From positions 1 to 32,000 of the forward strand of contig JBAYVT010000006.1 in assembly GCA_041674405.1 (NCBI GenBank): a stretch of DNA of 32,000 bases, written 5' to 3'. Below, one piece after another: positions 5,660 through 27,488 of the stretch. Both the position numbers and the translations under genes were made by a program. Position 1 is the stretch's first letter; the number at the start of each line of letters is the position of its first letter. The stretch is from Patescibacteria group bacterium. Its GTDB lineage: Bacteria; Patescibacteriota; UBA1384; XYA2-FULL-43-10. A model generated the notes under the pieces. The model saw only the letters and a list, made by a program, of their open reading frames with translations. It was not told the DNA's origin and searched no databases.

Positions 5660-5784
5660 AAATTAATAATATCATTATTTGTCAACTAGGTTGATTTTTT
5701 TGCCGCAACTGGGCAATATAAAATTGCAACACGCCTGAAACTGAACACCGGGAGGGGAATTAGATGCTACCAGGTCCGGAGATC

Positions 5785-5895
5785 ATGGCTGACGAGGGTA
5801 CTCGCAACGGGTGCGCCATCATGGCCGGAATCGTGATCGCCTTGCTGGGTATCGGATGGTTGGTGCAGGCGCTGGTTCTGCATGTGAATCCATAG
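5785..5895 (+). CDS. Candidate 36-aa single-TM mini-protein in the GC-rich islet
   Basis: An ATG is preceded by GGAG at a 4-nt spacing (tccGGAGatcATG). Translation is MADEGTRNGCAIMAGIVIALLGIGWLVQALVLHVNP, ending in TAG, and contains one clear hydrophobic helix. It is too short for the ORF track. It could instead be an accident of GC-rich sequence. Confidence 0.35.
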   Translation: MADEGTRNGCAIMAGIVIALLGIGWLVQALVLHVNP

Positions 5896-5906
5896 GGGGT
5901 GGAACA

Positions 5907-6062
5907 ATGGGCAGCCTTTGGCGGGAGTGGCGTGATGGTTGGCGTGAAAACCGCGGCGGCTGCCTTCTGGGGATTTTCTTCTTCGTTTGGGTGTCGGCGG
6001 CAATCGTAGGTTTTTTCTGGTGTGCCTCACACCCATCGCCACCGCACACACCGGGAATGTAG
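5907..6062 (+). CDS. Candidate 51-aa single-TM mini-protein in the GC-rich islet
   Basis: This is an internal ATG of the listed 5811..6062 ORF, preceded by GGGGGTGG 4 nt upstream. Translation is MGSLWREWRDGWRENRGGCLLGIFFFVWVSAAIVGFFWCASHPSPPHTPGM: a Trp/Arg-rich N-terminus followed by one TM helix. The stop lies 18 nt before a perfect GC hairpin. Confidence 0.35.
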   Translation: MGSLWREWRDGWRENRGGCLLGIFFFVWVSAAIVGFFWCASHPSPPHTPGM

Positions 6063-6079
6063 CAGGGGGACGAACGGGT

Positions 6080-6103
6080 GGGACGGGCGCATGCGCCCGT
6101 CCC
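6080..6103. other. Perfect 24-nt GC-rich palindrome/hairpin
   Basis: GGGACGGGCGCATGCGCCCGTCCC is fully self-complementary (about a 10-bp GC stem). No T-tract follows on either strand, so it is not a canonical intrinsic terminator. It sits between the mini-ORFs and tRNA-Gln. Confidence 0.6.
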
Positions 6104-6146
6104 TACTGGATTTATTAAGCTTAAAATGGTAATCTTAAGTGCGTAT

Positions 6147-6220
6147 TCCGAGATCGTCTAATGGCAGGACGGCGGATTCTGGCTCCGCTAATCTAGGTTC
6201 GACCCCTAGTCTCGGAACCA
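6147..6220 (+). tRNA. tRNA-Gln (anticodon CTG), CCA encoded
   Basis: Cloverleaf folded by hand over 74 nt:
- acceptor TCCGAGA/TCTCGGA (U1-A72)
- D stem GTCT/GGAC
- anticodon stem GCGGA/TCCGC
- anticodon loop TTCTGGC, giving anticodon CTG
- T arm CTAGG-TTCGACC-CCTAG
- discriminator A, then CCA. Confidence 0.85.
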
Positions 6221-6253
6221 AAAAAGTGGTTGTCTTTATGATGATCGCTTTTT

Positions 6254-6395
6254 TGGTTATAACTGGTCGAACCTGGGAAGGGGTCGGGAAACAGGAGTTT
6301 CCCGCGAGAGGAAAATAACAAAAACCGAGGGTTTTTGTAAGCAAAGACCCGAAGGGTCCCCATAGGGGCGTGTTCGACCCCAAGGCTTAAAACCA
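6254..6395 (+). ncRNA. Unclassified multi-hairpin structured element (candidate small RNA or decayed tRNA/att remnant)
   Basis: Nested pairings found by hand:
- P1: TGGTTATAA (6254-6262) / TTAAAACCA (6387-6395), 8 of 9 pairs
- P2: GGTCGAAC (6265-6272) / GTTCGACC (6372-6379), 8 of 8 pairs
- hairpin CGGGAAA-caggag-TTTCCCG (6285-6304)
- hairpin ACAAAAACC-gag-GGTTTTTGT (6318-6338)
- hairpin GACCC-gaa-GGGTC (6346-6358)
The 3' end repeats the tRNA-Gln 3' end. I could not match it to any RNA family I know. Confidence 0.35.
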
Positions 6396-6428
6396 AAAAA
6401 GAGCTTGTTTTTGGCAGGTTCTTTTTTG

Positions 6429-6457
6429 TTGTATTAAAATGTATTTCGTCTTATAAT
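6429..6457 (+). promoter_or_regulatory. Sigma-70-like promoter (TTGTAT - 17 nt - TATAAT), likely for the TPR/giant-protein/ABC operon
   Basis: TTGTAT lies at 6429-6434, followed by a 17-nt spacer and a consensus TATAAT at 6452-6457. It sits just upstream of the TPR ORF and an AGGAGGGAG Shine-Dalgarno at about 6485-6493. Confidence 0.55.
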
Positions 6458-6461
6458 TGTA

Positions 6462-7064
6462 GTGACAATTAAACCAAGTCGTCTAGGAGGGAGAATAGAG
6501 AAGCAACTAGGCACAAGAAAAGTCCAGCTCTGGGCTGTTATTTCAGTGCTATTGATAGCAGGATTTTTTGTCGTGGTTTGGAAATATTTCGATGTTGATA
6601 ATGCTAAAAACACAAGGAACAACTACGATCAAGCATTTCAAGATTTATTCAACAAAAATTACGATGAGGTAATACAAAATTTGACAGATGTCGAGAAGCT
6701 TCCAGAATTACAAAAAGAGCAAGCTTACACGGCATTGGGGCAAGCTTACTTTGCAAAAGCCAATTATGATAAGGCATTGGAAAATTATCAAAAAGCAGCA
6801 AGTTTGGCTGCAAGCGATAAAAAGAAATCGTATTATAATAATCTTATGGGAAATTGTTTGAGAGAGAACAAAGACAAAGACGGGGCAGTTGCTAAATATA
6901 AGCTGTCGGTCCAGCTTGATCCTAAAAATGAATTAGCTTGGGTTAATCTGATCAACTTATATAAGCTAGATGGGGATATCGCAAATGCAAAAAATGCGGT
7001 AAAAGATGCCCTTGTTGCCATGCCGGGCAACGAAACGATCAAGGCAATCGAACAAACTCTTTAG
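6462..7064 (+). CDS. Membrane-anchored TPR-repeat protein (about 200 aa)
   Basis: An N-terminal TM helix (LWAVISVLLIAGFFVVVW) is followed by TPR-like repeats (AYTALGQAYFAKANYDKALENYQKAASL; NNLMGNCL...AVAKYKLSVQLDPKNELAWVNLINLYKLDGDIANAKNAVKDAL). The start is uncertain. The GTG at 6462 overlaps the predicted transcription start, and a strong SD at 6485-6493 is followed in frame only by ATA (6495). The stop lies 9 nt before the giant gene. Confidence 0.75.
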   Translation: MTIKPSRLGGRIEKQLGTRKVQLWAVISVLLIAGFFVVVWKYFDVDNAKNTRNNYDQAFQDLFNKNYDEVIQNLTDVEKLPELQKEQAYTALGQAYFAKANYDKALENYQKAASLAASDKKKSYYNNLMGNCLRENKDKDGAVAKYKLSVQLDPKNELAWVNLINLYKLDGDIANAKNAVKDALVAMPGNETIKAIEQTL

Positions 7065-7073
7065 CGAGGGGAA

Positions 7074-10000
7074 ATGGGAGATTTTTTAAGAAAATTTAGC
7101 GCACTTACCAAGCTCAGGAGACAGAGAAAAGAGCGCAGTTTTGACATGGAAAAGTTGTCTTACGATCAAGCCAGGGAAAAATTCTCCAAAATATTTGAAG
7201 GCAAAATAACCGAGATCAAATCAGAAGCAGAAGCTATTCCGCAGAAATATTCGGAGATTAAATCTGATGCTCATGCTAAACATGGAAGAGAGCTTCGACG
7301 AATAGAGCGGCAGAAGGCCAGGGAATTAAAAAAACTTTCAAACGAAGAAAGATACGTCAGGTCTCGAATCAAGTACATCGAAGCCGGCGGAACAAAAACG
7401 ACATTTTCTGTATTCAAGTCTCTTGATTCAAACTTGAAGCACCGGTTTTCTTGGTATGAAAAATGGAGTTTAAATCCGCTTTCTGCCAAGGTAAATTTAT
7501 CGGCTGCAGGGATTTATATATTTGCCTTTTTGTTTGTAGTTTCCTTTTTTGCCCAGATACCAAAAGTCTCGGATGCAAGCGGGACATATGCTTGGAAATC
7601 TACCAAGGTCGCCCAGATAGATGCCAAAAGCAGCCAAGACGTGCCGAACCTTGACAATTCATCGGAACCGCAAAAATCGATCAGTGTAGATAATGTCACG
7701 GTAAATTTTTCCGATCAAAATAAAACAGCCTCGACAGAAATTGCGGCGACCATCGGCGGCAACAATGAGACTAATGCGGTGAAATTTACCCTGCTGCAAT
7801 CAAGCGGAGAAAAAAGTGAGTCAGTTTCTAAAAACAGAAGCATTTGGCAGAAAATTGCTGGTATTTTTCAGGCCGAAGCTGAAGATTCCAACGAAGCTAA
7901 TCCTGGAACAGGCGAGATAAAAGAAGCTACTGGTATCGAGGTAATATCAAGCGATGAGAAAAATAGCGTCACTTATAAGGTGAACGACAATCTGGATTTG
8001 GCGTATGAGGTTACGAAGGATGCTGGATCTGCAAAAATTAAAGAAACAGCAATCATAAAGGATGCAATTGCACTATCGAATGACAAATTATTGTTTGATG
8101 TGAATCTTTCTGGGCTCTCTGCGGTAGCACATGATGATGGATCGTATGATCTGGTTTCTGGGGATGGAGAATTAGTGATGCAAATTGCAGCTCCGACAAT
8201 TTTTGATGCTGAACAAAATAGCGGAATGGTAAATTTGGCGATCGACGAAACTGATGGCTCGGCCACATATTCTATTGATCCGGAATTTGTTAAAACAGCC
8301 AAGTATCCACTTTATCTAGATCCGACGGTTACAATTACCACATCCACAACCACAAACCCAAATTCTTATTCCAAGGATCACACCCTGTTTGAGGCGACCA
8401 ATGGTTCGATGGTAAATATCTATTCCGATGGGTCAAGCCTGTATTATACGATTTCGTCGGATCATGGCAATACTTGGGGGGCTGGTACAAAAATTCTGGA
8501 TACGGCTACCGCCGATGATACTGGTTTTTCCGGTTGGATGACTGCCGACAATAAGATTCATCTGGTTTACTCAAATAACGGAACGAATTCCTATATTTTT
8601 TATCGCGCCCTGACATTTGATACTGGAACCAATGCCATAACTTCGACAGGTACTGAATACACCGTCGAATCTGCCGGTACCAGCCAGGCTTTTCCTTCGG
8701 TTACTGTGAGTACTGCCGCCACAATTTATGTTGCTTACAGATACTATGACGGGGCGAATTATACGATTAAAGTAAAACCCTCGACAGCCACGGACGGTTC
8801 AACATGGGATACTGCAGCTACAATATCATCTGGAACAAATGCTTCTGCCGCAACATATCCAGAGCTCACACTCTGGGGGGACAATCCAGCAGTGGTCTAT
8901 AATTTTGCAAACGGAAGCTTCCGCTGGAATTATTATAATGGATCGGCTTGGCAGGCAGCTGGCTGGACGAATGAAAATATCTCAAATGAAGTTGATGCTG
9001 ATACGGGATTAGAATTTTCCTTAAGCCAGGCAACAAGTGATCACTTTCTACACCTTGCCTGGCGGGGATCAAGTACAAATGGCATCTTGTATCGCAAGCT
9101 TGCTAGCGCATCAGATACATCAAAATGGGATTCGGCATCGCAGGCCGTTACATCTTCTCATGATGATCGTTATCCGAATCTGGGTTTGGGTTTGAATGAC
9201 GCGCTATATCTATACTATAGCGAATACGTTGGAGCCAATTCATACAATGTTAAATATGTAGAAAAAGTTGGAAACACCGCCTTTGGGTCAACTAAGGTTT
9301 CTGTCACGACTGACAATGCCAATAATCTGATTCCAAAAGCAGCAATGAAGGGTACAAGCGTCCAAATTGCTGCGTATCCAGCGAGTGCTTATGATTTGAG
9401 TTTTAGTGGAAGCAGCCAGTATGTCAATATCGGCTCTGGATATGATAATTTTACATCCGGTCTAACATTTAGCATCTGGGCTTATCCAACAAATACGAAC
9501 GGCTGGGGTAGATATTTTGATCTTGCCAATGGCTCTGCAAATAATAATATCATGTTCGCGCGTAACGGAACGACTACAAACTTAACTTATGATATTTACA
9601 ATGGCGCAACAAGTGGAGGAAGTGTTACAGCAAATGGGGTGATCGAGCTAAATAAATGGCAACACTTTGTCGTTACCGAAACTGCGAGCGGAGTCGTAAC
9701 GATCTACAAAAACGGATCAGTCGTCGGTGGATCTGCGAGTTTTATTCTTCCCAATAATATTACTAGGACATCGAATTATATTGCCAAGAGCAACTGGCCA
9801 GATCCTTACTACGCTGGGCAAATTGATGAACCACAGATTTACAATAGAGCACTTACTTCAGATGAGGTTACTGCTCTCTATAACGGCGGGTCAATTTCAC
9901 AGCTATATTTTTCCTCAGGCTTAGTTGCCGGCTGGCATCTCGAAGAAAACTCTGGAACCTCAATTGCAGATTATTCAGGAAATGGTTATACAGGAGCATT

Positions 10001-13000
10001 ACAGGGTCCACCCACATGGGTGTCTCAGGGTTCCGGTGGCGTCTATACGGTTCCTGCAATTAGTATTTCTTCTTATTCCCCGGTAGTTTTTGTTTCCGGT
10101 ACCGGCCCATCTTATGATATTAATTATGCTCCAACGGTGAAGGTTTGGAGCGCGGCTGCAGATGGAAACTGGGAAACGGATGCTAATTGGACGCCAAGCG
10201 GCGCTCCGGCTGCAGGCGACATAGTATTATTTGACGGGACATCAACCAAGAATTGTACTGTTACGACTTATACCGGTAGTGCTGGAGGGATGGGTATTGC
10301 TGACGGCATAGGAAGCGTTTCCTTGAATCCCGGTTATACTGGGACGATTACATTCCAAAAAAAGCCTTCGCAAAATGCTGACCCGTACAAAATTAATATT
10401 GCGGGAGATTTTGCCATTAATGCAGGAACCGTACTATCGCAAGGAGATACCTCTGTTGCTCACGGTGGGGTGACTGATGGGCGTGGTAATGAATACGGTT
10501 CTTTGAACCTGATTATTGGTTCGTCTGGAACCTTAAGCGCAGACAGTCTCGGGTTTCCAGCGTTCTCAGGGCCTGGGTATGGTGGTACGGGTACTTATGG
10601 AGGCCAAGGTTACTATAGTTCAGCAAACACATATGGTGATTTTTCAAATCCAGTAAGTTTGGGAAGTGGGAGTGCTAATGGTATAAGTGGCGGCGTATCT
10701 GGAGGCGGAGCAATGCTTATAAGCGTTACAGATACCGCAGACATATCGGGCACAATGTCAGCAAATGGCCAAACTTCAGGCGCTTACGCTGGAGCAGGCG
10801 GATCTGGAGGCTCTGTCAACGTGTCTGCCAAGACAATATCAAATAGCAGCGGAGGTGGTGTTATCTCCACAGAAGGTGGAGATGCCACATACACCTCTGC
10901 CGGTGGCAGTCCTGGCGGCGGCGGACGAATTAGCCTTCAAGCAACAACAATCAGCTATAACGGAACTCTAACAGCCGCAGGTGGAGTTTGGAACGCCAGC
11001 CGTTATGCTTCTGCCGGTACTATATTTAAAAAGGCCGGAGGCCAGAGCTACGGAGATCTTATTATTGACAATGGCACCAATGCTCCAGACTGGCGCATCT
11101 TCGGTGCTGCTCATTTAAAGGGCATAAACGATACGGGATCATATCAATTCGACAATCTGATAATCCAAAATTATGGAAAACTCGCTATAGATACCGGTCA
11201 AACTTTTGATCTTACAGGCGGCGTAACAGGTGGGGACAAAAATGCCGGTGTTATAAACGCAGGTACAATCACAACTCCTTCGACTTGGACACTGAATTAT
11301 TTTTTTGCTGACAAAAATGGTACGATTACAAACCTAGCAAACAAAGATATCATTGTCTCCTCAACCGGCCGCCTAACTCATTACGCAAACGCCAATCTTG
11401 AAACTTATAAATTAAATTGGCAAATAAATAACTTTACCGTTCAATCAGGCGGGGAAGTAATTACCTCAGGTGTCGGTTATGCGGCTGGACAAGGAACTGG
11501 TTATACAAGTGGTGCAGGTTCGAGTTATGGGGGGGATGGATACGCCGCAAGCACCACCAAAGCCTACGGAGATTATTCGAACCCAATCAATCTCGGAAGC
11601 GGCGGGTCGTATGCCGGTGGCGGCGGGGCAATTATCTTGAATGTTACAAATACACTAGACATTTCGGGGACAGGTATTATTTTGGCAGATGGCCTGAGTC
11701 ATGGGTCAATGAATAATAGCGCCGGCTCTGGCGGTTCAGTTAATCTGACCGCATCTTCTATCACCAACTCCGGTGGTGGGGGCTCAATCACAGCTAATGG
11801 TGGAAATTGTACTTTTTCCGGCGGCGGTTTCCAGCCGGGCGGCGGCGGCGGACGAATAAAACTCGAGGCGACTACGATTAGCTATAACGGAACAATTACT
11901 GCGGTCGGAGGATATAACGGCAACATGTATGCCTCTGGGGGCACAATTTACAAAAAGGCCGGTGGCCAGAGTTACGGTGATCTGATTATCAATAATGGAA
12001 CAAATACGCCTTTAGTGAGAAACCAGTTAAGTGCCCATCTTAAAACTTCGACCGATAATGGCACTTATCAATTTGATTCGATAACATTTTCCGGTTATGG
12101 CAGGTTGGTTGTCGACGCAAACCAAACCCTAAAACTCGACTCTGGCACGATAAGCGGTAACAAAACATCGGGAATTGTAAATGCTGGTACTATTAATGTG
12201 CCGGATAGTTGGAGCTTGAACCATTATTATTCTGACAAAGGTGGCACGATTACGAATTCGTCAAGTAAAAGTTTGACAATTACCTCAACAGGCCTTATGA
12301 CCCACTATCCGAATACGACTGATGAAACATATAAATTGAACTTAAATCTTTCAGGCCTGACCGTCCAATCAACTGGCGAGATCAATGTTGGTGAGATGGG
12401 CAATCAAACCGGGTATGGAAGTGGTTATGCAGCTGGAGTCGGTGCATCTCACGGCGGTGTCGGCGGAAGCTCAACTGCAGCTAAAACTTATGGTGATTAT
12501 ACCAATCCGATCAATATTGGAAGCGGTGGTAGCGGTAATGGCGGTGGCGGTAATGGCGGTGGCGCAGCAATTATCAATGTAACCAATTCGCTTGATATTA
12601 GCGGAACAATTTCGGCTTCTGGCGGTACATACCCGGGAGCCTGTTATGACTATGGATCAAGCGGTGGAAGTATTAATCTAACGGCCGGACAAATTACGGG
12701 CAGCGGCTATCTGTATGCACTTGGCGGAACCGTCAATTTTGGCTGTGCTGCACGTGACGGCGGCGGCGGCGGACGAATTAAAGCAGAAGCGACATCGATA
12801 GCGGGGACTTTGCATTATTCCGCGGCAGGCGCGCCAGGGGCTGGCACCCGCGGTGGATCTGCTGGTACGATTTACAAAAAAATAACCGGGGAATCAACCG
12901 GCGATCTTATTATCGATAATTCAACTACAAGCGCTACTGCATATACTCCCCTAACGATGCCTGTTTCTCTGAAAGTTTTAACGCTGCAAAGCAATGGCAG

Positions 13001-16000
13001 GCTTGAGGCAAATCCGAATGCTGACTCGGGCCAAAATGCCTTTTCAATCTCAGGGGATTTGACCATTGCTTCTGGAACTACAATGAGTGTGAAAGGAGAT
13101 GCTGACGGGACCCCTGCTGCAGGTTCTTGGCCGGCACTAACGGTCGGAGGTAGCGCGAGCATTGCTGGCACGCTGACAGCAACTGGCAATGGTTTCATTC
13201 ACGATACCGGTCCCGAAAGTGGTAAAGGGTTAGTTGCTGGTGGAAATGGTTCCGGTGGCGGTTATGGCGGCGCGGGGGGAAATTCGGCCGGCGGCGCCGT
13301 TGGGGGCCAAACTTACGGAGATCAGAGGAACAACAATTATCTTGGCTCCGGCGGTGGAAATACGAATGGCGGATCCGGCGGCGGAATGGTCAAGCTTTCT
13401 GTGGCTGGTAACTTGGCGCTTTCGACGACAGGTATTATTTCTTCGGATGGCAATGCTGGTGGCGCAAATGGCGGTGGTGGTTCCGGCGGATCAGTCCAGA
13501 TTGTTACCGGCGGTACTTTGTCCGGATCCGGAAGTGCTAAGATCACCACAAATGGGGGAGCTGGCGGTAGTGCTGGTGGCGGCGGTGGCGGCGGACGCGT
13601 TACCATTTATACGGCAAGTGATTCCTATACAGGTGCGCTGACGGCAAATGGAGGCACCAAGGGCACAGGAGCCCAGGATGGTTCTGCTGGTACCATACTG
13701 AATCAACATTCACCGACGGCACCAACAATTACTTCGCCAACCGATGCGGCAACCGGTCAAGTGCAAAGGATAGCTTTTCACTTTAATTCGACAGATATCG
13801 ATACTGACTGGATTCAATACAAATTACAATTAGCTACAGATTCCGGTATTACGCAAAACGTCTCAACTTTCGACGAAACGGTTTCACAATCTCCGTCTGA
13901 TGGCGGCCGATCTGCAGCTTTTTCAAATCAGAATATGACAACCGGAAAGGCGGCTGGGACCGATGGCTATGAATCGGGACGCGATGCAATTTTGACGCTA
14001 ACTTCGGATTTAACTCAAGGTGCGACTTACTATTATCGCGTGTATGCCTATGACCCGGAGGGTGTTGATTCGTTTGATGGTACGCAGCACTGGTCTATCG
14101 CTTCGAGCGTACAATCATTCACGGTTGCGGCTATCGACCGCATCGCTTTTTCAACTGCACAGCAGGAAATCGTGGTGACTTTCTGTTCGGCAGAGATGAC
14201 GATAAACTTGAGAAATTCAGCGAATACCAACATGAATTTGACTGCTGATGACGGCTCAAAGACAATTCATTTGGCATCAACCTCATCAGGTGGAAAATTT
14301 TATTCCGACGGCAATTGCCAATCGGAGCTTTCCGGCGCAAATGTCACAATTGCCCCGGGAAATTCAGCCTCAACCTTCTATTACAAAGACACGGTTCCGT
14401 CCGCGGTAGGAGGATATTGGAATATCACTGCGGCCGAGTCTCCATCAGCCGGCTGGACGGATGGATCGCAAAATATTCGGATCAAAGCAGGTGATTTTGG
14501 TTCTTTCGAGATTACTGGCGCACCAGCCACCATTGTTGCTGGCCAAGCCTTCTCGTCACCGGCAAACGATATTACCGTGACGGTGAAAGATGTATTTGGC
14601 AATGTAAAGAACGACTGGATCGGGGAAATTTGGTTCTATTCTTCCGATTCCCAGGCAACCTTTCCTTACAATGATTCGAGCAAATATACTTTCACATCGG
14701 GAGAGGGATTAGATAACGGCACCCACACCTTCGCGGGGACAGGATTTACTTACAAAACGAAGGGCAACCAATCTCTTGTAGTTCACAACTCGGAAGGCAG
14801 CGAACATGATGCCGTGACAAATGTGGCAGTCACGCCGGCTGCAACGGATCATTTTGGCCTTGCCAGTTATCCGAAGACCACGCAAGGATATTTTGCCATG
14901 GCCTCATTTGCCTGGAATACGCCGGGTTACTCGAATGCTCCGTATACGCCAGCAGTGACTGTTTATGACCAATTCAACAACGTCAAAGACAATTTCACCG
15001 GCAGTGTCTGGTTTGAATTATACAAATCGTCCGACACACCGGGAAATCCAGGTGACTCAACTGCCAGCTATTCTTTTGACAATGATTATACCAATCCTTA
15101 TACCTTTACTTCCGGCACAGGGAATGACAACGGCGCGCACGCATTTGCCGGTAGTGGGTTTATAGTGAATTCTGCCGGATCAGATTTGCGATTCAGGGTT
15201 AAAACCACAGACAATGGCAATAAATACTCTGATTTCACAATTTCGGTAAAACCGCAGGCGATCGATCACTTTGGCATCACCGCCTCCCCGACGCTTTCCA
15301 GAGGTGGCACAGACTGGGAGAAAGCAGTGGACTCGACCTTTACTGAAGATGTGACGGTCACTGCTTATGATGCGTTTGGCAATGTAAAAACCGATTATGG
15401 ATATGATGAAAATACCAAGGCGGGAATGATTTATTTTTATTCATCCGACACATATGCAGTGTTGCCATATTACAAAACCGTTTCAACCGATTCCACGCAT
15501 TGTTACAATTTTCCGGCCGATAATACCGGTACTTACACATTTACCCCAGAGAATACGCCGACAAATTACTTCATGTTTCGTACTGGAGGATACCAAACAA
15601 TTTCAGCATCAGAATGTATCGATCCAACCTCCGATTATGCAACCAATGTGAATACCAATCGTTATGATCCAAGGCTTGAGGGGACAAACCCATTAAAACT
15701 TGCTGCTTCGATTGGTTCTCTTCCTGCCGCGAATGCTACGCCTAACAAAGTATTTGTGTCACAGCATGTGCCAGGGTCAAATCATACAGCAACAGCCCAC
15801 ACAAATGATGCCAACGATCTTATTTCGGCAGCACCTGGCCACCAACAGGCAACTATCTCCTGGTACAATCCATTCGACGTGCCGTCTGATTCCAATGTTC
15901 ATCCTCAGGTTTATGTTTATCGTTGTACTCTTACCGATTGTAATGATCCGGAAAATTTCCAAAAAATTATAACCAATCCTTCCGAAGTTGCCGCAACTCC

Positions 16001-18287
16001 ATCGACTTGGGGTTCATATACCGATACCGGCCTTACAAACGGCCAGGATTACTATTATCGCCTAAGCTATGCCTACGAAAAACAAGATAGCACCTACCTC
16101 GAGAGTGGATTTTCTAATATTGTTACCGTTCAGCCGGCGGATATCGCGCCGAGAAATATTACAGCAGAACAGCTGGATGTAAGCGACCCGACCAATCCTG
16201 GAAAAATTAAAATCAATTATGATTTAAGGTGGGCTTCGACCATTTCGATTGCATATTTCGATCCTGACTTAAATTCGTGGCACAACGCATCATCTTCGGC
16301 GCAGTCTGGCGATGTCGGGGCGGGGATAACCGGGGATGAGAATCTGATCAGCCATATTGCCTATCTGGATCCGAACGTCGATTTTGATGGCAAATATCTC
16401 GAAGATTCATTTAAGATCAGGGTCAAAGCGCAGGTTAACGGGAATAACGCTTATTCTGATTCAGCGACGATGGATTTGGATTCAAAGAATCCGGTCTCGA
16501 CTTTGGTAGTCGACGCAACGGCGGGGAGTACTGCCAATTTGGCTATTACCGGCACAGACGATACGGGACCGCTCAAAATGATGGTTTCGACGCATGCGGA
16601 TTACAATGGGGCAAGCTGGGAATCGTTTGCAACTTCAAAATCTAATCTGGATATCACAGGTGCCACTAATGTGTATCTTAAAGTCCGCGACAACTTCAAC
16701 AACATTACCGAAGTTATCACCCCATTAACCTCTGCGCCAACCAATATTCAAATCAAGGATGCGTCCGATATTACATCGGGTGATTATCGCTTGGCGATTA
16801 TTTGGCATTCGGTTCCCGGCGCTGCCCATTACAATATTCTACGCACGACCGACGGCTCAACATATAACAAGATTTCTGAAGCAACTGAAAACGGATATCT
16901 GAATATGAACTTAAGCCAGGGAACGACTTATGGGTATAAGGTTACAGCTCAGGATTCTTCCGGCAATATTTCCTTGCCGGCCGGGCCGGTTTCATCCGAG
17001 CCTGGAAGTGCGCCGGATGTGACATCGCCGCCACAAGTAGAAATTTTCGGCTGGAAGCAGGATGTTGGAGTTCGCGTAAGAGTCACCTGGCATACCGATC
17101 AAAGCTCTGATTCATTTGTAGCGTATTCAACCGATCCATTGTCTTCCGGCACAGCTTTAACCACCACCAATGGCACAACCGATTCAGTAAAAGTTGTCGG
17201 TTCTCCTGATCTTAAAACAGATCATGAGATAATGCTCTACAACCTCAATCCTTCAACAAAATATTACTTCAAGGTGCTTTCCAAAAACCAAATTCAGATT
17301 ACGGGAGCATCGGATGTCTACGATTTCACAACTCCAGAGCGCATTCTTCTCACAATTTCAGGCCTTAAGATATTGGATATTACAAATACCCAAGCCTTGG
17401 TATCCTGGACAACCTCCAAGCTGTCCACGACAAAATTGGAGTATGGAAAGAGCGTAAACTATGAAAGTAATATTCTCGATGAGACAATGAACACAGATCA
17501 CAAGTTCCAGCTGACCAATTTAACTGCCGGTGAGTATCATTTACGTGTAAATGCGACTGATTCGGATGGGAATGTAACAATTTCTGATGATTACACCTTC
17601 ACAATTCCGGAAACCCCGGTAATTTCGGGTCTTTCAATTTCAGAGGTTGGCGACAACGGCGCTACAATATCTTGGACTACCAATGTCCCCTGCGATTCGA
17701 ACGTTGATTTTGTTGCCAGCGATAAGGTGGGAGGATCGCAAGGCGATGGCACCAGGCTAACCACACACAAGGTAAAATTGATCGGGTTGGATTCAAAGAC
17801 AACTTATTCAATCAAAGCAAGATCGACCGACCAATATGGTAATGTGGCACTATCCGGCGAACAATCATTCACGACAACTGCAGACACACAAGCACCACAA
17901 ATTTTGAACCAAAAATCGGAAGTTTCTTCGACTGGGGCAGGAGATTCTATTAAATATCAATTGATAGTCTCCTGGGAAACCGATGAACCCGCTACTTCCA
18001 AGATAGAGTATGCCGCAGGTATGGGTGAAAATTATGATTCTGCCTCGCGCGAGGATCTATCACTTAATATGACGCACGTAGTCATAATCTCTGATCTTAA
18101 GCCAAATTCGCTGTATCATTTCCGTATCAAGAGCATGGATAAAGCCGGAAATACTGCATATTCCGATGACTACACCATTACTACGCCACCAAAAGAAAAA
18201 AATATCCTGACAATTATTATCAATGCCGTAATTGGGCCGATTAATGATATTTATTCAGGGCTGATGCAAAAATTTAGATTGAGGTAA
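7074..18287 (+). CDS. Giant mosaic surface protein, 3737 aa (N-terminal charged cytoplasmic segment + signal anchor; BNR/Asp-box propeller-like region; LamG/ConA-like lectin domain; Gly-rich beta-helix modules; Big-like domains; multiple Fn3-like domains)
   Basis: A single uninterrupted ORF with GAGGGG upstream of the ATG. Motifs read from the translation:
- K/R/E-rich first ~140 aa, then a TM helix AAGIYIFAFLFVVSFFAQIP (nt ~7503-7562)
- Asp-boxes SSDHGNTWG (8457-8480) and TDGSTWD (~8790)
- LamG-like block LSFSGSSQYVNIG...WQHFVVTE...IYKNGSVVGG...GQIDEPQIYNRALTSDEVTALYNGG (~9390-9895)
- VWSAAADGNWETDANWTPSG cap (~10140)
- repeated Gly-rich modules (10386-13705)
- three V(T)V.D.FGNVK.(D/N) Ig-like units (~14491-15610)
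- Fn3-like units with ISW.T...S.V.Y signatures (~15830-18195)
- a hydrophobic C-terminal tail NILTIIINAVIGPINDIYSGLMQKFRLR. Confidence 0.9.
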   Translation: MGDFLRKFSALTKLRRQRKERSFDMEKLSYDQAREKFSKIFEGKITEIKSEAEAIPQKYSEIKSDAHAKHGRELRRIERQKARELKKLSNEERYVRSRIKYIEAGGTKTTFSVFKSLDSNLKHRFSWYEKWSLNPLSAKVNLSAAGIYIFAFLFVVSFFAQIPKVSDASGTYAWKSTKVAQIDAKSSQDVPNLDNSSEPQKSISVDNVTVNFSDQNKTASTEIAATIGGNNETNAVKFTLLQSSGEKSESVSKNRSIWQKIAGIFQAEAEDSNEANPGTGEIKEATGIEVISSDEKNSVTYKVNDNLDLAYEVTKDAGSAKIKETAIIKDAIALSNDKLLFDVNLSGLSAVAHDDGSYDLVSGDGELVMQIAAPTIFDAEQNSGMVNLAIDETDGSATYSIDPEFVKTAKYPLYLDPTVTITTSTTTNPNSYSKDHTLFEATNGSMVNIYSDGSSLYYTISSDHGNTWGAGTKILDTATADDTGFSGWMTADNKIHLVYSNNGTNSYIFYRALTFDTGTNAITSTGTEYTVESAGTSQAFPSVTVSTAATIYVAYRYYDGANYTIKVKPSTATDGSTWDTAATISSGTNASAATYPELTLWGDNPAVVYNFANGSFRWNYYNGSAWQAAGWTNENISNEVDADTGLEFSLSQATSDHFLHLAWRGSSTNGILYRKLASASDTSKWDSASQAVTSSHDDRYPNLGLGLNDALYLYYSEYVGANSYNVKYVEKVGNTAFGSTKVSVTTDNANNLIPKAAMKGTSVQIAAYPASAYDLSFSGSSQYVNIGSGYDNFTSGLTFSIWAYPTNTNGWGRYFDLANGSANNNIMFARNGTTTNLTYDIYNGATSGGSVTANGVIELNKWQHFVVTETASGVVTIYKNGSVVGGSASFILPNNITRTSNYIAKSNWPDPYYAGQIDEPQIYNRALTSDEVTALYNGGSISQLYFSSGLVAGWHLEENSGTSIADYSGNGYTGALQGPPTWVSQGSGGVYTVPAISISSYSPVVFVSGTGPSYDINYAPTVKVWSAAADGNWETDANWTPSGAPAAGDIVLFDGTSTKNCTVTTYTGSAGGMGIADGIGSVSLNPGYTGTITFQKKPSQNADPYKINIAGDFAINAGTVLSQGDTSVAHGGVTDGRGNEYGSLNLIIGSSGTLSADSLGFPAFSGPGYGGTGTYGGQGYYSSANTYGDFSNPVSLGSGSANGISGGVSGGGAMLISVTDTADISGTMSANGQTSGAYAGAGGSGGSVNVSAKTISNSSGGGVISTEGGDATYTSAGGSPGGGGRISLQATTISYNGTLTAAGGVWNASRYASAGTIFKKAGGQSYGDLIIDNGTNAPDWRIFGAAHLKGINDTGSYQFDNLIIQNYGKLAIDTGQTFDLTGGVTGGDKNAGVINAGTITTPSTWTLNYFFADKNGTITNLANKDIIVSSTGRLTHYANANLETYKLNWQINNFTVQSGGEVITSGVGYAAGQGTGYTSGAGSSYGGDGYAASTTKAYGDYSNPINLGSGGSYAGGGGAIILNVTNTLDISGTGIILADGLSHGSMNNSAGSGGSVNLTASSITNSGGGGSITANGGNCTFSGGGFQPGGGGGRIKLEATTISYNGTITAVGGYNGNMYASGGTIYKKAGGQSYGDLIINNGTNTPLVRNQLSAHLKTSTDNGTYQFDSITFSGYGRLVVDANQTLKLDSGTISGNKTSGIVNAGTINVPDSWSLNHYYSDKGGTITNSSSKSLTITSTGLMTHYPNTTDETYKLNLNLSGLTVQSTGEINVGEMGNQTGYGSGYAAGVGASHGGVGGSSTAAKTYGDYTNPINIGSGGSGNGGGGNGGGAAIINVTNSLDISGTISASGGTYPGACYDYGSSGGSINLTAGQITGSGYLYALGGTVNFGCAARDGGGGGRIKAEATSIAGTLHYSAAGAPGAGTRGGSAGTIYKKITGESTGDLIIDNSTTSATAYTPLTMPVSLKVLTLQSNGRLEANPNADSGQNAFSISGDLTIASGTTMSVKGDADGTPAAGSWPALTVGGSASIAGTLTATGNGFIHDTGPESGKGLVAGGNGSGGGYGGAGGNSAGGAVGGQTYGDQRNNNYLGSGGGNTNGGSGGGMVKLSVAGNLALSTTGIISSDGNAGGANGGGGSGGSVQIVTGGTLSGSGSAKITTNGGAGGSAGGGGGGGRVTIYTASDSYTGALTANGGTKGTGAQDGSAGTILNQHSPTAPTITSPTDAATGQVQRIAFHFNSTDIDTDWIQYKLQLATDSGITQNVSTFDETVSQSPSDGGRSAAFSNQNMTTGKAAGTDGYESGRDAILTLTSDLTQGATYYYRVYAYDPEGVDSFDGTQHWSIASSVQSFTVAAIDRIAFSTAQQEIVVTFCSAEMTINLRNSANTNMNLTADDGSKTIHLASTSSGGKFYSDGNCQSELSGANVTIAPGNSASTFYYKDTVPSAVGGYWNITAAESPSAGWTDGSQNIRIKAGDFGSFEITGAPATIVAGQAFSSPANDITVTVKDVFGNVKNDWIGEIWFYSSDSQATFPYNDSSKYTFTSGEGLDNGTHTFAGTGFTYKTKGNQSLVVHNSEGSEHDAVTNVAVTPAATDHFGLASYPKTTQGYFAMASFAWNTPGYSNAPYTPAVTVYDQFNNVKDNFTGSVWFELYKSSDTPGNPGDSTASYSFDNDYTNPYTFTSGTGNDNGAHAFAGSGFIVNSAGSDLRFRVKTTDNGNKYSDFTISVKPQAIDHFGITASPTLSRGGTDWEKAVDSTFTEDVTVTAYDAFGNVKTDYGYDENTKAGMIYFYSSDTYAVLPYYKTVSTDSTHCYNFPADNTGTYTFTPENTPTNYFMFRTGGYQTISASECIDPTSDYATNVNTNRYDPRLEGTNPLKLAASIGSLPAANATPNKVFVSQHVPGSNHTATAHTNDANDLISAAPGHQQATISWYNPFDVPSDSNVHPQVYVYRCTLTDCNDPENFQKIITNPSEVAATPSTWGSYTDTGLTNGQDYYYRLSYAYEKQDSTYLESGFSNIVTVQPADIAPRNITAEQLDVSDPTNPGKIKINYDLRWASTISIAYFDPDLNSWHNASSSAQSGDVGAGITGDENLISHIAYLDPNVDFDGKYLEDSFKIRVKAQVNGNNAYSDSATMDLDSKNPVSTLVVDATAGSTANLAITGTDDTGPLKMMVSTHADYNGASWESFATSKSNLDITGATNVYLKVRDNFNNITEVITPLTSAPTNIQIKDASDITSGDYRLAIIWHSVPGAAHYNILRTTDGSTYNKISEATENGYLNMNLSQGTTYGYKVTAQDSSGNISLPAGPVSSEPGSAPDVTSPPQVEIFGWKQDVGVRVRVTWHTDQSSDSFVAYSTDPLSSGTALTTTNGTTDSVKVVGSPDLKTDHEIMLYNLNPSTKYYFKVLSKNQIQITGASDVYDFTTPERILLTISGLKILDITNTQALVSWTTSKLSTTKLEYGKSVNYESNILDETMNTDHKFQLTNLTAGEYHLRVNATDSDGNVTISDDYTFTIPETPVISGLSISEVGDNGATISWTTNVPCDSNVDFVASDKVGGSQGDGTRLTTHKVKLIGLDSKTTYSIKARSTDQYGNVALSGEQSFTTTADTQAPQILNQKSEVSSTGAGDSIKYQLIVSWETDEPATSKIEYAAGMGENYDSASREDLSLNMTHVVIISDLKPNSLYHFRIKSMDKAGNTAYSDDYTITTPPKEKNILTIIINAVIGPINDIYSGLMQKFRLR
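10386..13705 (+). repeat. Intragenic tandem modules (about 3.5 copies, 308-340 aa each) of a glycine-rich beta-helix-like unit within the giant gene
   Basis: Modules start at the in-frame YK(I/L)N anchors at nt 10386, 11406 and 12330. Each carries YGD(F/Y)(S/T)NP(V/I)(S/N)(L/I)GSGG, a GGGG(G)RI(S/K)(L/A)(Q/E)AT(T/S)I core (nt ~10917, ~11841, ~12763) and SAGTI(F/Y)KK...GDLII(D/N)N. A shortened fourth unit has GGGGGGRVTIY at ~13582. Copies differ at many nucleotide positions. Confidence 0.8.
14491..15610 (+). repeat. Three tandem Big/Ig-like units (about 130 aa period) within the giant gene
   Basis: Recurring blocks are ITVTVKDVFGNVKNDW...YTFTSGEGLDNGTHTFAGTGF, AVTVYDQFNNVKDNF...YTFTSGTGNDNGAHAFAGSGF and VTVTAYDAFGNVKTDY...YTFTPENTP. 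Each is preceded by DHFG(L/I) linkers. Confidence 0.65.
17010..18195 (+). repeat. Four tandem Fn3-like (purple-acid-phosphatase-N-like) domains at the C-terminus of the giant protein
   Basis: Four units of about 95-100 aa each carry a (V/I)(T/S)W.T....(S/T)...V.(Y/F) signature: VRVTWHTDQSSDSFVAYS, ALVSWTTSKLSTTKLEYG, ATISWTTNVPCDSNVDFV, LIVSWETDEPATSKIEYA. Each ends in ...Y.F(T/R)(V/I)...D..GN. Confidence 0.65.
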
Positions 18288-18289
18288 AA

Positions 18290-19045
18290 ATGTCGAAAAC
18301 AAAGGTAATTGAAGTGGAAAATATCACGAAATCATATGGTGTTGCTGATAATGTTTTTTCTGTTTTAAACGGGATTAGCTGTAGCATAGACTCGGGCGAA
18401 TTCGTGATATTTTTTGGTCCCTCTGGTTGTGGCAAATCGACGCTTCTCAACGTGATTTGCGGGCTTGAGACGGTTGACTCGGGAAAAGTTAGTATTCGCG
18501 GAGAAGATATTTCAAAATTTTCGCAAAAGGAAATCGCTTTTTACCGACGAACAAAGATTGGAATTATTTTCCAGCAGTTCAACCTTTTAAAAAATCTTTC
18601 AAACAAAGGTAATGTGGCGCTTCCGCTGGTGGCGAACGGAGAACCCCTAAAGCGCGCAGAACATCGTGCCGAGCAACTTCTTACAATGTTCGGGCTACAG
18701 AAACACATAAACAAACAACCAACAGAGCTTTCTGGCGGACAGCAACAGAGAGTGGCGATGGCGAGGGCACTTGCACCGAATCCCTGGATATTGGTTGCTG
18801 ATGAGCCGACAGGAAATCTGGATTCAAAATCGGCCGATGAGGTCATCGAAATTTTTAATATACTAAACCGGAAGTCAAAGAGAACGGTAATTATGGTTAC
18901 GCACAATCCGGATTATCTAAAATATGCTGATCGTGTCCTTCATCTTAAAGATGGTAAAATTGTTAAAGAAGAAAAAAATAAAAATACAGCAGCGGTTAAA
19001 AATATTGAAGGGTTTGATCTTAAAGAGCATGCGTTTTCCAACTAA
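18290..19045 (+). CDS. ABC transporter ATP-binding protein (MacB/LolD-like), 251 aa
   Basis: Walker A GPSGCGKST, Q-loop IGIIFQQFNL, signature LSGGQQQRVAMARAL, Walker B ILVADEPTGNLD and H-loop MVTHNP are all present. The ATG lies 2 nt after the giant gene stop (gaggTAAaaATG), suggesting co-translation in one operon. Confidence 0.92.
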   Translation: MSKTKVIEVENITKSYGVADNVFSVLNGISCSIDSGEFVIFFGPSGCGKSTLLNVICGLETVDSGKVSIRGEDISKFSQKEIAFYRRTKIGIIFQQFNLLKNLSNKGNVALPLVANGEPLKRAEHRAEQLLTMFGLQKHINKQPTELSGGQQQRVAMARALAPNPWILVADEPTGNLDSKSADEVIEIFNILNRKSKRTVIMVTHNPDYLKYADRVLHLKDGKIVKEEKNKNTAAVKNIEGFDLKEHAFSN

Positions 19046-19054
19046 GGGTTTGAT

Positions 19055-20236
19055 ATGAAATTTTTTCAAATTATCAGAACAACTTGGCTAAATATTCTGG
19101 GGAAAAGAATGAGGTCTTTGCTTACTGTTATCGGCATCGCCGTTGGTATCGGGACAATTGTTTTCTTGGTTTCTTTGGGATATGGCCTTCAAGAATTTTC
19201 GGTGAAAAGAATCAGCTCGATTCAATCGCTTACTACCCTTGATGTGACACAGGGGAAAACGGCTAATTTTAAGCTTGACGAACCGACAATTGATAAGATA
19301 TCAAAACTAAGCAATGTATCAGAAATTAGCCCGATTATCTCATTGGGCAGCAAGGTTGCGCTTGCTGACAAAAAAACCGATGCGGTAGCTACGGCTGTGC
19401 AAGGTGACTATTTTGTGTATGAAGACCTTAAGCTCACAAAAGGCTCTACTTTCATGGATGATGATAAAAAAGCAGTGTTGTCAACGGCCCTTTTGCAGGC
19501 GCTTGGTACGGACGAAAATTCAATAATCGGCAAAACAATCGCGTTTAATATTTCCTATAAACAAAAAGAGCAGTCTCAAAGCAAAGATTTAAGCCTTATT
19601 GTGTCTGGCGTTGTCTCCGATAACACTTCTCCCTTTGCCTACATCCCATTGTCTCAAGTTCAGGATCTGCTGGGAGAGCGCGCCATCTACTCGTCCTTAA
19701 AGGTAAAAACCGCTTCTGAAGATACTATGGGCGGCGTTCGCAAGGAAATCGAAGACATGGGGCTTTCTGTTACTTCGGTTGCTGACACAATTGCCCAAGT
19801 AAACAGCGTTTTTGGCGGGATTAGGATCGCCCTTGGCTTATTGGGTGGGATTGCCCTGGTCGTTGCGGCAATCGGAATGTTCAATACAATGACGATCGCC
19901 CTTTTGGAGAGAACTCGTGACATTGGGATAATGAAATCGGTCGGCGTTGATAACCGCGATATTTACTGGATGTTTTTGGCTGAAGCAATTATCATCTCTG
20001 GTGCAGGAGGAATTGCCGGCGCAGCATTTGGGCAGCTTCTGGCTGTGCTGATCAATGTTCTTGTTGGTAGCTTGGCTAGGATGGTTGGTGCGGAGCCAAT
20101 CGTGTTGTTTTCAACCCCGTTTACATTTGTTGCCATCATTGTCGGTTTTTCGCTGGTAGTTGGGATCTCGACCGGATTTTATCCTTCAAGAAGGGCAGCT
20201 AAAATCAATCCATTGGATGCGCTGCGTTATGAATAG
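19055..20236 (+). CDS. FtsX/MacB-family ABC permease, 393 aa
   Basis: The N-terminal TM helix (LLTVIGIAVGIGTIVFLVSLGYG) is followed by a ~220-aa extracytoplasmic domain and the FtsX block MTIALLERTRDIGIMKSVGV...FYPSRRAAKINPLDALRYE. It parallels the permease half of the fused gene at 1..1544. The start lies 9 nt after the ATPase stop. Confidence 0.9.
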   Translation: MKFFQIIRTTWLNILGKRMRSLLTVIGIAVGIGTIVFLVSLGYGLQEFSVKRISSIQSLTTLDVTQGKTANFKLDEPTIDKISKLSNVSEISPIISLGSKVALADKKTDAVATAVQGDYFVYEDLKLTKGSTFMDDDKKAVLSTALLQALGTDENSIIGKTIAFNISYKQKEQSQSKDLSLIVSGVVSDNTSPFAYIPLSQVQDLLGERAIYSSLKVKTASEDTMGGVRKEIEDMGLSVTSVADTIAQVNSVFGGIRIALGLLGGIALVVAAIGMFNTMTIALLERTRDIGIMKSVGVDNRDIYWMFLAEAIIISGAGGIAGAAFGQLLAVLINVLVGSLARMVGAEPIVLFSTPFTFVAIIVGFSLVVGISTGFYPSRRAAKINPLDALRYE

Positions 20237-22956: not shown

Positions 22957-22990
22957 TCGAAAGTCCATAAAGTCTGTAAAGTCCATAAAG
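22954..22990 (+). repeat. Copy B of the TAGTC + AAAGTC-unit repeat (left flank of the four-helix-bundle gene)
   Basis: TAGTC GAAAGTC CATAAAGTC TGTAAAGTC CATAAAG. The first TAG is the stop codon of the HypC-HydE gene, and the array ends 9 nt before the 4HB gene ATG. Confidence 0.7.
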
Positions 22991-22999
22991 CGGGAGAAA

Positions 23000-23344
23000 A
23001 TGAAAATCAATAAATTTGAAGATATATTGGCTTGGCAGAAGGCGAAAGAGCTGACTCTCTTGGTCTATACGATATTCAAGGCAAACAAGGATTTTGGTTT
23101 TCGCGATCAAATTCAAAGGGCGGTGATATCGATTATGAACAATATTGCTGAGGGTTTTGAACGTCGCGGAGATAAAGAATTTAAACATTTTTTGTATATT
23201 GCCAAAGGGTCCTGCGCTGAGGTTCGTTCAATGCTTTATATTGCTAAAGAACAAGGTTATGTCAGAAGCACAGATTTTGATAGAATCTACTTATTAACTG
23301 TCGAAATTTCAAAAATGTTATCAGGATTCATAAAGACTTTATAG
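23000..23344 (+). CDS. Four-helix-bundle protein (23S rRNA intervening-sequence protein family), 114 aa
   Basis: The translation from the internal ATG at 23000 (GGGAG SD 3 nt upstream) is MKINKFEDILAWQKAKELTLLVYTIF...FRDQIQRAVISIMNNIAEGFERRGDKEFKHFLYIAKGSCAEVRSMLYIA... This matches the family signature as I know it (W..A..L...(V/I)Y, Q(L/I).RA..SI..NIAEG, F..(F/Y)L.IA.GS..E). The 44 codons upstream in the listed ORF are just the repeat array read through. Confidence 0.85.
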   Translation: MKINKFEDILAWQKAKELTLLVYTIFKANKDFGFRDQIQRAVISIMNNIAEGFERRGDKEFKHFLYIAKGSCAEVRSMLYIAKEQGYVRSTDFDRIYLLTVEISKMLSGFIKTL

Positions 23345-27442: not shown

Positions 27443-27488
27443 GATTGATCGTTTGTTCTTGCTCAAATTTTCTTTTGTGAAATTAATA

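Follow-up and report, generated by a model that had tools for sequence, protein, structure and literature searches.

Patescibacteria represent a large share of bacterial diversity and are believed to have an attached life on other cells, and we know of no account of how their very large surface proteins are deployed. The 32,000-nt stretch of patescibacterial DNA studied here (the window; positions 1 to 32,000 of contig JBAYVT010000006.1, assembly GCA_041674405.1) raises this question in a concrete form. In it, the gene of a 3737-aa modular surface protein (hereafter the giant) is preceded by that of a protein with tetratricopeptide repeats (TPR) and followed by those of an ATP-binding cassette (ABC) ATPase and a permease (Table 1). 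The four open reading frames (ORFs) are separated by gaps of 9 nt (TPR/giant), 2 nt (giant/ATPase) and 9 nt (ATPase/permease), and a GAGG-like Shine-Dalgarno sequence lies ahead of every downstream start. The ORF coordinates bear out the four genes and the junctions described in a first-pass annotation of this DNA, which had proposed an undescribed partnership between the giant and a dedicated ABC system. Do the ABC pair and the giant belong together, and through which part of the giant? By comparison of related loci, the adjacency of giant and ABC genes is far above chance and is not obligate, and the determinant conserved among the ABC-adjacent giants is a C-terminal domain like fibronectin type III (Fn3) plus a short tail.

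Linkage of giant genes and ABC pairs

Relatives of the permease occur in Berkelbacteria and other lineages belonging to the candidate phyla radiation (CPR). At the loci of the homologues with 79, 59, 56 and 53% identity the order is always giant ORF, ATPase, permease, with giants of at least 2098 to 3557 aa that carry Fn3/LamG/Pur_ac_phosph_N domains; orthologues of the window's giant, of 3186-3557 aa, are found in loci L003, L005, L006 and L140. The 79% locus retains the SIS, radical-SAM and DJ-1 genes that lie downstream in the window, and the genes downstream of the 59-53% loci are wholly different (NYN/Ddl, UvrD, YjbQ). In a wider survey, the permease alignment was run against one genome per species of the Genome Taxonomy Database (GTDB), which gave 80 loci, all of them in CPR-type metagenome-assembled genomes. 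A same-strand ORF of at least 1000 aa was present within two genes of the ABC pair in 31 of the 80 loci, a lower bound given that many contigs are short, and ORFs of this size made up 32/263 of the near genes (12.2%) versus 6/546 of the far genes (1.1%), with an odds ratio of 12.5 (P=2e-11). The orders found across lineages are giant-ATPase-permease, ATPase-permease-TPR-giant, giant-TPR-ATPase-permease and ATPase-permease-giant, and paralogous ABC sets, each with its own giant, can coexist in one genome (ADurb.Bin212, L005 and L012; JBAYHC01, L018 and L038). Since the linkage persists through flank turnover and permuted gene order, the pattern is, as far as sequences can tell, that of a functional module, unlike that of inherited synteny.

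The large ABC neighbours diverge in their N-terminal and central parts, and all of them can be aligned with the final ~500 aa of the giant in the window. In the alignment, the C-termini of the ABC-adjacent giants show a common specialised Fn3-like domain, with the signature W-x-T-[DN]-E ... Y-x-F-R-V-x-S-x-D-x-x-G-N ... T-P, followed by a tail of ~25 residues at the extreme C-terminus. The window's giant conforms to this pattern, its last Fn3-like module (aa 3626-3705) reaching an independent E-value (iE) of 3e-39 against the family hidden Markov model (HMM). The tail reads TP-x-x-E-x-S-L-L-Q-L-V-x-x-S-L-E-E-T-F-S-W-V-G in most lineages and TPPKEKNILTIIINAVIGPINDIYSGL in the clade of the window. 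When an HMM of the end region was run on the permease-anchored loci, it matched 35 ABC-adjacent ORFs versus 0/172 distant ORFs, counted from 300 aa upwards (P=7e-16). The model had been trained on adjacent ORFs, which makes the test partly circular; what it tells us lies in the absence of matches among the distant genes. The last 110 aa of the giant, run in an exhaustive HMMER search, matched 14,115 cluster representatives at E<=1e-3, many of them large proteins in which the best match stops 10-15 residues short of the C-terminus; the named matches come from Uhrbacteria and Parcubacteria. Thousands of large proteins carry the C-terminal Fn3 plus tail module.

The end of the giant had been described in the first-pass annotation as a short hydrophobic tail. 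Its maximum Kyte-Doolittle (KD) value, KD19, is 1.35, which is not of transmembrane (TM) grade and led us to discard the tail as a TM anchor; what stands there instead is the conserved Fn3-like domain plus tail. The giant ends ...TPPKEKNILTIIINAVIGPINDIYSGLMQKFRLR, and no LPXTG sortase signal was found at this end.

The linkage was also examined from the giant side. A reciprocal metagenome scan anchored on the tail motif [SN]LEETF[SA]W alone gave 52 loci. The tail-bearing ORFs followed by 2.5 kb of sequence or more number 30, and for 11 of them the next three genes include an ATPase and a permease. Five tail-module giants were also drawn as an unbiased sample from the matches of the exhaustive search; an ABC pair comes directly after three of them (6179, 4492 and 2600 aa), and one of these three also has an upstream TPR protein.

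Other neighbourhoods deserve mention in their own right. A homologous putative lipoprotein of ~153 aa lies beside tail-bearing giants of another clade (L118, 846-1304; L122, 865-1323; L119, 13109-13573), either immediately ahead of the giant gene or following the permease gene; it has an Asn/Thr-rich linker and, in L118 and L122, a lipobox-like MTGCG. In locus L145 the giant comes after a 2051-aa FG-GAP protein. In Falkowbacteria/Parcubacteria loci with no giant (L052, 6968-11158; also L049, L057, L061 and L081), the ABC pair comes directly after SecY (Pfam 1.4e-102) and ends a run of small ORFs resembling a ribosomal-protein cluster, and the SecY-linked ATPase has a C-terminal extension of 200-350 aa with no Pfam match.

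The ABC complex, the TPR protein and the modules of the giant

The motifs of the ATPase are intact (Walker A GPSGCGKS, signature LSGGQ, Walker B ILVADEP and H-loop), and its best NCBIfam matches are the MacB nucleotide-binding domain (NBD), DarD, LolD, DevA and FtsE. The permease consists of a first TM helix, a MacB-like periplasmic core domain (aa ~47-250) and TM helices 2-4, which form the FtsX domain, with Pfam E-values of 8.8e-20 for PF02687 and 1.4e-23 for PF12704. Its AlphaFold2 (AF2) model, with a predicted local distance difference test (pLDDT) value of 83, has four long helices and an alpha/beta ectodomain (aa ~55-241). Compared by Foldseek with the Protein Data Bank (PDB), this model matches MacB (5gko, E=1e-24; 5nik_J, TM-score 0.79), YtrF (0.74) and LolE (0.69), and FtsX is absent from the top 50. 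A profile search of the PDB with the permease placed YtrF first (2e-54), followed by MacB (9e-49) and then by S. pneumoniae Spr0695 and LolF/E/C; FtsX appeared only with E=2.5e-5, in the TM region alone. The scores stay under the cutoffs of the MacB equivalog NF007826 (216.5 bits for the ATPase and 98.3 for the permease vs 966), the LolCE model TIGR02212 (71 bits vs 362) and the FtsX models FtsX_actino (43 vs 250 bits) and FtsX_Gpos (41 vs 225).

There is one permease gene per ABC set. No MacA/HlyD/membrane fusion protein (MFP) or TolC domain was found with Pfam among the window neighbours or at the orthologous loci of 79-53% permease identity, and neither an ABC_membrane (PF00664) exporter nor an RTX repeat was found with Pfam among the window neighbours. 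By their motifs and modelled fold, the ATPase and the permease qualify as a catalytically competent ABC complex of type VII (MacB/YtrEF/LolCDE fold), in agreement with the split MacB-type system named in the first-pass annotation (MacB_PCD plus FtsX in Pfam, type VII fold, MacB as a Foldseek match). The same annotation had asked whether these genes could be the housekeeping LolCDE or FtsEX set that sits at a fixed locus, and this identity was rejected in view of curated scores far under the cutoffs, variable flanks and the existence of paralogous sets.

The TPR protein (Pfam TPR_2, 2.3e-10) has one TM helix (aa 19-45, KD scan) after a short basic N-terminus, and its TPR domain is therefore predicted to face outward, that is, to be extracytoplasmic. 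An iterated HMM of this TM-anchored protein has 15 members, of which 15/15 lie within two genes of the permease, including those of all 13 closest loci, and it found none elsewhere in the surveyed DNA. In the nearest relative (L140) the TPR gene is directly upstream of the giant with a 4-nt overlap, and the order TPR-giant-ATPase is as in the window. Genes of ~230 aa beside the pair or the giant in other clades were considered as TPR equivalents and discarded, since they encode housekeeping proteins (a SLOG/LOG-family protein, TGT and HrcA).

The KD scan of the giant gave a single TM-grade segment (aa 138-166), which follows a basic N-terminal stretch of 140 aa with 35 K+R and 20 D+E, so that the charged segment and single helix described earlier are both recovered. 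A type II topology is predicted, in which the N-terminus is cytoplasmic and ~3570 aa lie outside, beyond a single TM helix. A motif related to the juxtamembrane one of the window's giant, W-Y-Y-K-W-H-L-N-P-x-S, stands ahead of the TM helix in L012, L013, L015, L016, L025, L038, L043 and L082; the motif is limited to one Berkelbacteria-like subset or clade of giants, and many ABC-adjacent giants have plain signal anchors without it. A database search with the N-terminal 450 aa of the giant gave one weak match, which, together with the recurrence of the motif in one clade only, led us to discard the charged N-terminal segment as a conserved determinant.

As for the outer part of the protein, the LamG lectin domain and the three Ig-like repeats of the first-pass annotation were confirmed, as was its Gly-rich repeat (3.5 copies of a putative beta-helix in that annotation), present in at least three copies of ~308 aa at both protein and DNA level. 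This repeat has a DNA period of 924-933 nt and 18-28% Gly, and it matched no Pfam family. Fn3-like modules are present as well, four of them confidently assigned in place of the six or more first counted, and the Pfam Fn3/Pur_ac_phosph_N match spans aa 3334-3704. The Asp-box/BNR module is a weak assignment, with a single canonical Asp-box and a BNR_2 match (E=2.9e-4) under its cutoff. Searches with domain models detected no hydrolase domain in the giant, NCBIfam has no model matching it, and it carries no lipobox.

A possible role in surface deployment and its alternatives

Type VII ABC complexes such as MacB, LolCDE and FtsEX have no polypeptide channel, work at the membrane's outer face and pass ATP-driven movement to an extracytoplasmic domain, and a TPR protein is a peptide-binding scaffold. 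A model in which the complex engages the C-terminus of the giant was arrived at because the fold has no channel, the signal anchor is a normal one, the only universally shared feature is C-terminal and the TPR scaffold faces outward. In this model, the giant would be made as a type II membrane protein whose ~3570 outer residues are exported, presumably through Sec, and the permease ectodomain would then engage the last Fn3-like domain and the ~25-residue tail, helped in the Berkelbacteria-like clade by contact with the outward-facing, membrane-anchored TPR protein. ATP hydrolysis would serve for docking, unfurling, assembling, extending or holding the giant at the cell surface, by a logic analogous to that of FtsEX on PcsB, EnvC, CwlO and RipC. 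In our judgement there is an even chance that the four genes are a conserved surface-deployment module specific to Patescibacteria, whose ABC complex engages the Fn3 plus tail of the giant by ATP-driven mechanotransmission. The giant could act as an adhesin, in attachment to host or prey. A broader proposal, which we put forward only tentatively and consider rather doubtful, is that Fn3 plus tail would be the sorting or docking signal of an unrecognised type VII ABC-driven surface-protein pathway, widespread in Patescibacteria, in which one ABC complex, sometimes with a TPR adaptor, would serve adjacent and possibly distant giants and power the assembly, extension or anchoring of the giant fibres through which these ultra-small episymbionts would contact hosts.

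Several observations weigh against engagement of the giant by its neighbouring complex, besides the partial circularity of the tail HMM mentioned above. Seen from the permease, 49 of the 80 homologous ABC pairs have no large neighbour and some of them sit after SecY, so the ABC family may be more general in its role. Seen from the giants, 19 of the 30 tail-bearing ORFs have no nearby pair and neighbour TGT, UvrA/B, Ddl, SurA-like or YkuD genes instead, and two of the five sampled giants, both of RCC1/WD40 type, have none either. The RCC1/WD40-repeat giants of L142 and L145 (3518 and 3053 aa) carry the same terminal Fn3-like array and have no ABC pair on either visible flank. The 848-kb contig Ga0209512_1000004 (L110, L112, L113 and L115), which is probably a CPR genome close to complete, carries four tail-bearing giants (2500-3360 aa) with housekeeping flanks, and none has an adjacent pair; if served by an ABC pair, they would have to be served in trans. 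A pair hidden just past the flank of the non-adjacent giants was found at none of the loci where this could be checked (those with TGT, UvrA/B, Ddl, SurA-like and YkuD neighbours, and L142 and L145). The TPR protein, for its part, is confined to one clade. The tail was also considered as a clear amphipathic helix and this found no firm support, as its helical moment is not above that of shuffles in most sequences (p = 0.03-0.5) and a low-confidence single-sequence AF2 model (pLDDT 65) draws it as a beta-strand. Finally, YtrEF, the closest solved relative, has no established function (PMC12772383) and gives no mechanistic guidance. The enriched linkage stands, and the word 'dedicated' is too strong for an ABC pair that is not adjacent to ~60% of the more distant tail-module giants.

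Other explanations have to be weighed on the same evidence. The association could have no functional content and reflect shared descent or insertion at permissive sites, as the wider synteny (SIS, radical SAM, DJ-1) of the closest loci (79%) would allow; given that the linkage outlasts full flank turnover and order permutation at 35-59% identity, and given the P values of 2e-11 and 7e-16, this explanation is strongly disfavoured and we give it hardly any weight. Export in the manner of a type I secretion system, with the tail as an uncleaved secretion signal, the pair passing the giant outward with its C-terminus leading and the N-terminal helix remaining as a membrane retention anchor (cf. 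LapA, SiiE), would fit a giant adhesin-like protein that lies by an ABC system, has a conserved C-terminal element and bears an N-terminal anchor resembling a retention module. It is very unlikely, as the permease has a 4-TM type VII fold which, according to the MacB and LolCDE structures, lacks a central translocation pathway, no PF00664 exporter, MFP or RTX repeats occur among the neighbours, and the N-terminal signal anchor suffices for Sec targeting.

Extraction as by LolCDE or HrtBA would act on the other end of the protein: after Sec export, the pair would pull the N-terminal signal-anchor helix from the outer leaflet, in order to release the giant to the wall or S-layer or to shed it. 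The fold resembles LolE (TM-score 0.69) no less than other members, a homodimer with a lateral groove such as LolCDE or HrtBA have would be expected from the single permease gene, and one clade has a conserved juxtamembrane motif before the TM helix. However, the N-terminus is the least conserved part of the giant, many ABC-adjacent giants do not have the motif and the element common to all of them is C-terminal, and we regard extraction as quite unlikely. The partnership could also be indirect, the pair handling some small ligand needed for the modification, anchoring or protection of the giant or for the acquisition of host material at the contact site, be it a lipid-linked glycan, a lipid, a peptide or an antimicrobial, with no contact between pair and giant. 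This would agree with the many homologous pairs that have no giant, including those beside SecY, with the small molecules handled by the relatives MacB, BceAB, HrtBA, DevCA and YbbAP, and with an adjacency that is not obligate; it is nevertheless rather unlikely, since it leaves unexplained both a C-terminal module specific to ABC-adjacent proteins and a TM-anchored TPR protein that always travels with the pair, and no glycosyltransferase or lipid-handling gene is consistently linked.

Among known systems, MacAB-TolC gives both the permease (5nik_J; PF12704 plus PF02687) and the ATPase their best match in sequence and fold, and MacB can expel a periplasmic polypeptide, as in the export of enterotoxin STII by MacAB-TolC. 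Here, by contrast, NBD and transmembrane domain are split, no MacA/HlyD or TolC gene is nearby, the equivalog threshold is not reached, the cell is presumably monoderm and the candidate partner is ~80 times larger than STII. The locus has in common with LolCDE the type VII fold and the concept of pulling a membrane-embedded anchor from the outer leaflet, and differs from it in having one permease gene instead of LolC plus LolE, a giant without a lipobox and a conserved element that is C-terminal. B. subtilis YtrEF (PDB 9o9x) is a monoderm split type VII ABC and the closest solved sequence relative of the permease, but it belongs to the ytrGABCDEF cell-wall stress operon, with no giant or TPR neighbour. 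As in the type I giant adhesins (LapA/LapBCE, SiiE/SiiCDF), a giant repetitive protein with conserved C-terminal and N-terminal retention or anchor elements lies by ABC genes; unlike in them, the ABC is of type VII and not a 6-TM ABC_membrane protein, MFP, outer membrane protein and RTX are missing, and the signal anchor is of Sec type. The scattered distribution recalls LPXTG/sortase and PEP-CTERM/exosortase, where large surface proteins that are otherwise unrelated bear a short conserved C-terminal tag and are encoded partly next to the machinery and partly elsewhere in the genome (here with ~40-60% adjacency), whereas the tail has no signature motif, TM helix or basic cluster and the linked machinery is an ABC rather than a transpeptidase. 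The best functional analogy is FtsEX, also a type VII pair in which ATPase and 4-TM permease are separate, the permease has an extracytoplasmic domain and the setting is a single membrane. Its target is an exported protein, on which it works by mechanotransmission and not by transport, namely E. coli EnvC, S. pneumoniae PcsB, B. subtilis CwlO and M. tuberculosis RipC (PMC7668044, PMC6355983, PMC10694151). The differences from FtsEX lie in the MacB-type periplasmic core domain of the permease, in place of the FtsX extracellular domain, in a partner that is a 3737-aa modular protein with Fn3 plus tail and not a coiled-coil hydrolase activator, and in the additional TPR anchor protein.

Large Fn3/ConA surface proteins have been noted in Patescibacteria (PMC13059738), and giant genes of Omnitrophota have been linked to a type II secretion system, with no mention of MacB, FtsX or permeases (10.1101/2023.11.21.568195). 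A full-text literature search found no description of an ABC-TPR-giant module or of the C-terminal tail. The 'undescribed partnership' of the first-pass annotation is in this respect well founded, its linkage being strongly supported by comparison; what fell were the promoter and terminator argument (see below) and the epithet 'dedicated'. Judged from the sequences, the module would extend a known theme, in which a type VII ABC is partnered by an extracytoplasmic protein, and there is a real chance that it represents a distinct surface-protein deployment pathway. The outside partners of type VII ABC complexes known to us are always small or medium-sized (EnvC, PcsB, lipoproteins, peptides). 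If the proposal is true, mechanotransmission would be extended to giant adhesin-like fibres, whose proteins range from 1,000 to over 6,000 residues and have a common C-terminal module. Practical gains would be a sequence tag with which the substrate set of any CPR genome could be identified, a specific ATPase as a target for mutation or inhibition, and a testable hypothesis of host attachment for organisms that are only now becoming genetically tractable.

Limits of the locus and other features of the window

The coordinates of the locus and of its surroundings are collected in Table 1. On the 5' side, the terminator-like hairpin probably closes the upstream tRNA-Gln unit and marks the boundary of the module. 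The 'one strong promoter' claimed in the first-pass annotation corresponds to an existing site, TTGTAT-17-TATAAT, whose -10 is perfect and lies 4 nt before the GTG start, but its -35 is weak (3/6 of the consensus) and promoter-like sites are not enriched in the region (34 vs 30.1 in shuffles); an alternative promoter-like site, TTGGCA-18-TAAAAT, is found at 6411-6440. A terminator had been placed only after the permease, but the scan of the region gave no terminator-like site 3' of this gene, and a same-strand SIS gene follows after a gap of 118 nt.

Table 1. Position of the four genes, of the modules of the giant and of neighbouring features in the window.
Feature	Position (nt)	Strand	Description
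TPR protein gene	6462..7064	+	GTG start, 200 aa; Pfam TPR_1/2/8
Giant modular surface protein gene	7074..18287	+	3737 aa; predicted type II topology
ABC ATPase gene	18290..19045	+	251 aa; Pfam ABC_tran
Type VII ABC permease gene	19055..20236	+	393 aa; Pfam MacB_PCD + FtsX
Juxtamembrane motif WYEKWSLNPLS (aa 127-137), then signal-anchor helix (aa 138-166)	7452..7571	+	
LamG / concanavalin-A-like lectin domain, aa 779-932	9408..9869	+	Pfam Laminin_G_3 2.2e-24
Gly-rich ~308-aa repeat, at least 3 copies, aa 1145-2000	10506..13073	+	Protein self-comparison and DNA repeats
Three Ig-like repeats, ~125 aa each, aa 2468-2860	14475..15653	+	Protein self-comparison; DNA repeat family D5
Array of four Fn3 / Pur_ac_phosph_N-like modules at the C-terminal end, aa 3336-3705	17079..18188	+	Pfam and family HMM
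Conserved C-terminal tail TPPKEKNILTIIINAVIGPINDIYSGLMQKFRLR	18189..18284	+	Alignment, tail HMM; candidate recognition/docking element
Hairpin and T-run, terminator-like	6394..6428	+	16-pair stem, then TTGTATT
Promoter-like TTGTAT-17-TATAAT	6429..6457	+	-35 at 6429-6434, -10 at 6452-6457; read from sequence; function putative
tRNA-Gln	6147..6220		Between second-MacB region and TPR gene, with terminator-like hairpin
Second fused NBD-MacB_PCD-FtsX protein, cut by window start	1..1544	+	34% identical to split permease; membership uncertain
Surface protein of 1219 aa, N-terminal signal anchor, C-terminal LPQTG sortase signal	1655..5314	+	No Pfam domain; membership uncertain

The fused MacB protein and the 1219-aa LPQTG protein at the start of the window were overlooked in the first-pass annotation. 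The LPQTG protein lacks the Fn3 plus tail module, and the two may represent a parallel pairing of an ABC with a large surface protein, of a different class.

Between this pair and the TPR gene, the 3' end of the tRNA-Gln is repeated 175 nt downstream, directly before the promoter-like site (6197-6262 vs 6372-6437, 71% identity), which may be the scar of an integration or what is left of a second, decayed tRNA. Upstream of the tRNA lies a GC-rich stretch (5760-6110) with overlapping small ORFs (5767..6051 on the minus strand and 5811..6062 on the plus strand), which ends in a perfect 24-nt palindrome, GGGACGGGCGCATGCGCCCGTCCC (6080-6103).

Downstream of the locus, an ORF resembling the four-helix bundle of bAvd / 23S_rRNA_IVP is found at 22868-23344, and two ORFs of this kind (1165-1548 and 3570-4037) flank the 4492-aa giant in L146. 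Diversification of the giant by a diversity-generating retroelement was considered in view of the nearby bAvd-like ORF and rejected, as the window contains no template/variable repeat pair and no reverse transcriptase. A 439-aa ORF at 21637-22956 is an unusual fusion of N-terminal HupF/HypC and radical SAM, conserved in L001-L003. On the minus strand (24146-27553), an enzyme resembling phosphoenolpyruvate (PEP) synthase or pyruvate phosphate dikinase (PPDK) is apparently encoded in three consecutive ORFs, one with PPDK_N (309 aa), one of 291 aa with weak His_Phos_1 and one of 537 aa ending in the PEP-utilizers mobile domain, and the same split is present in L001.

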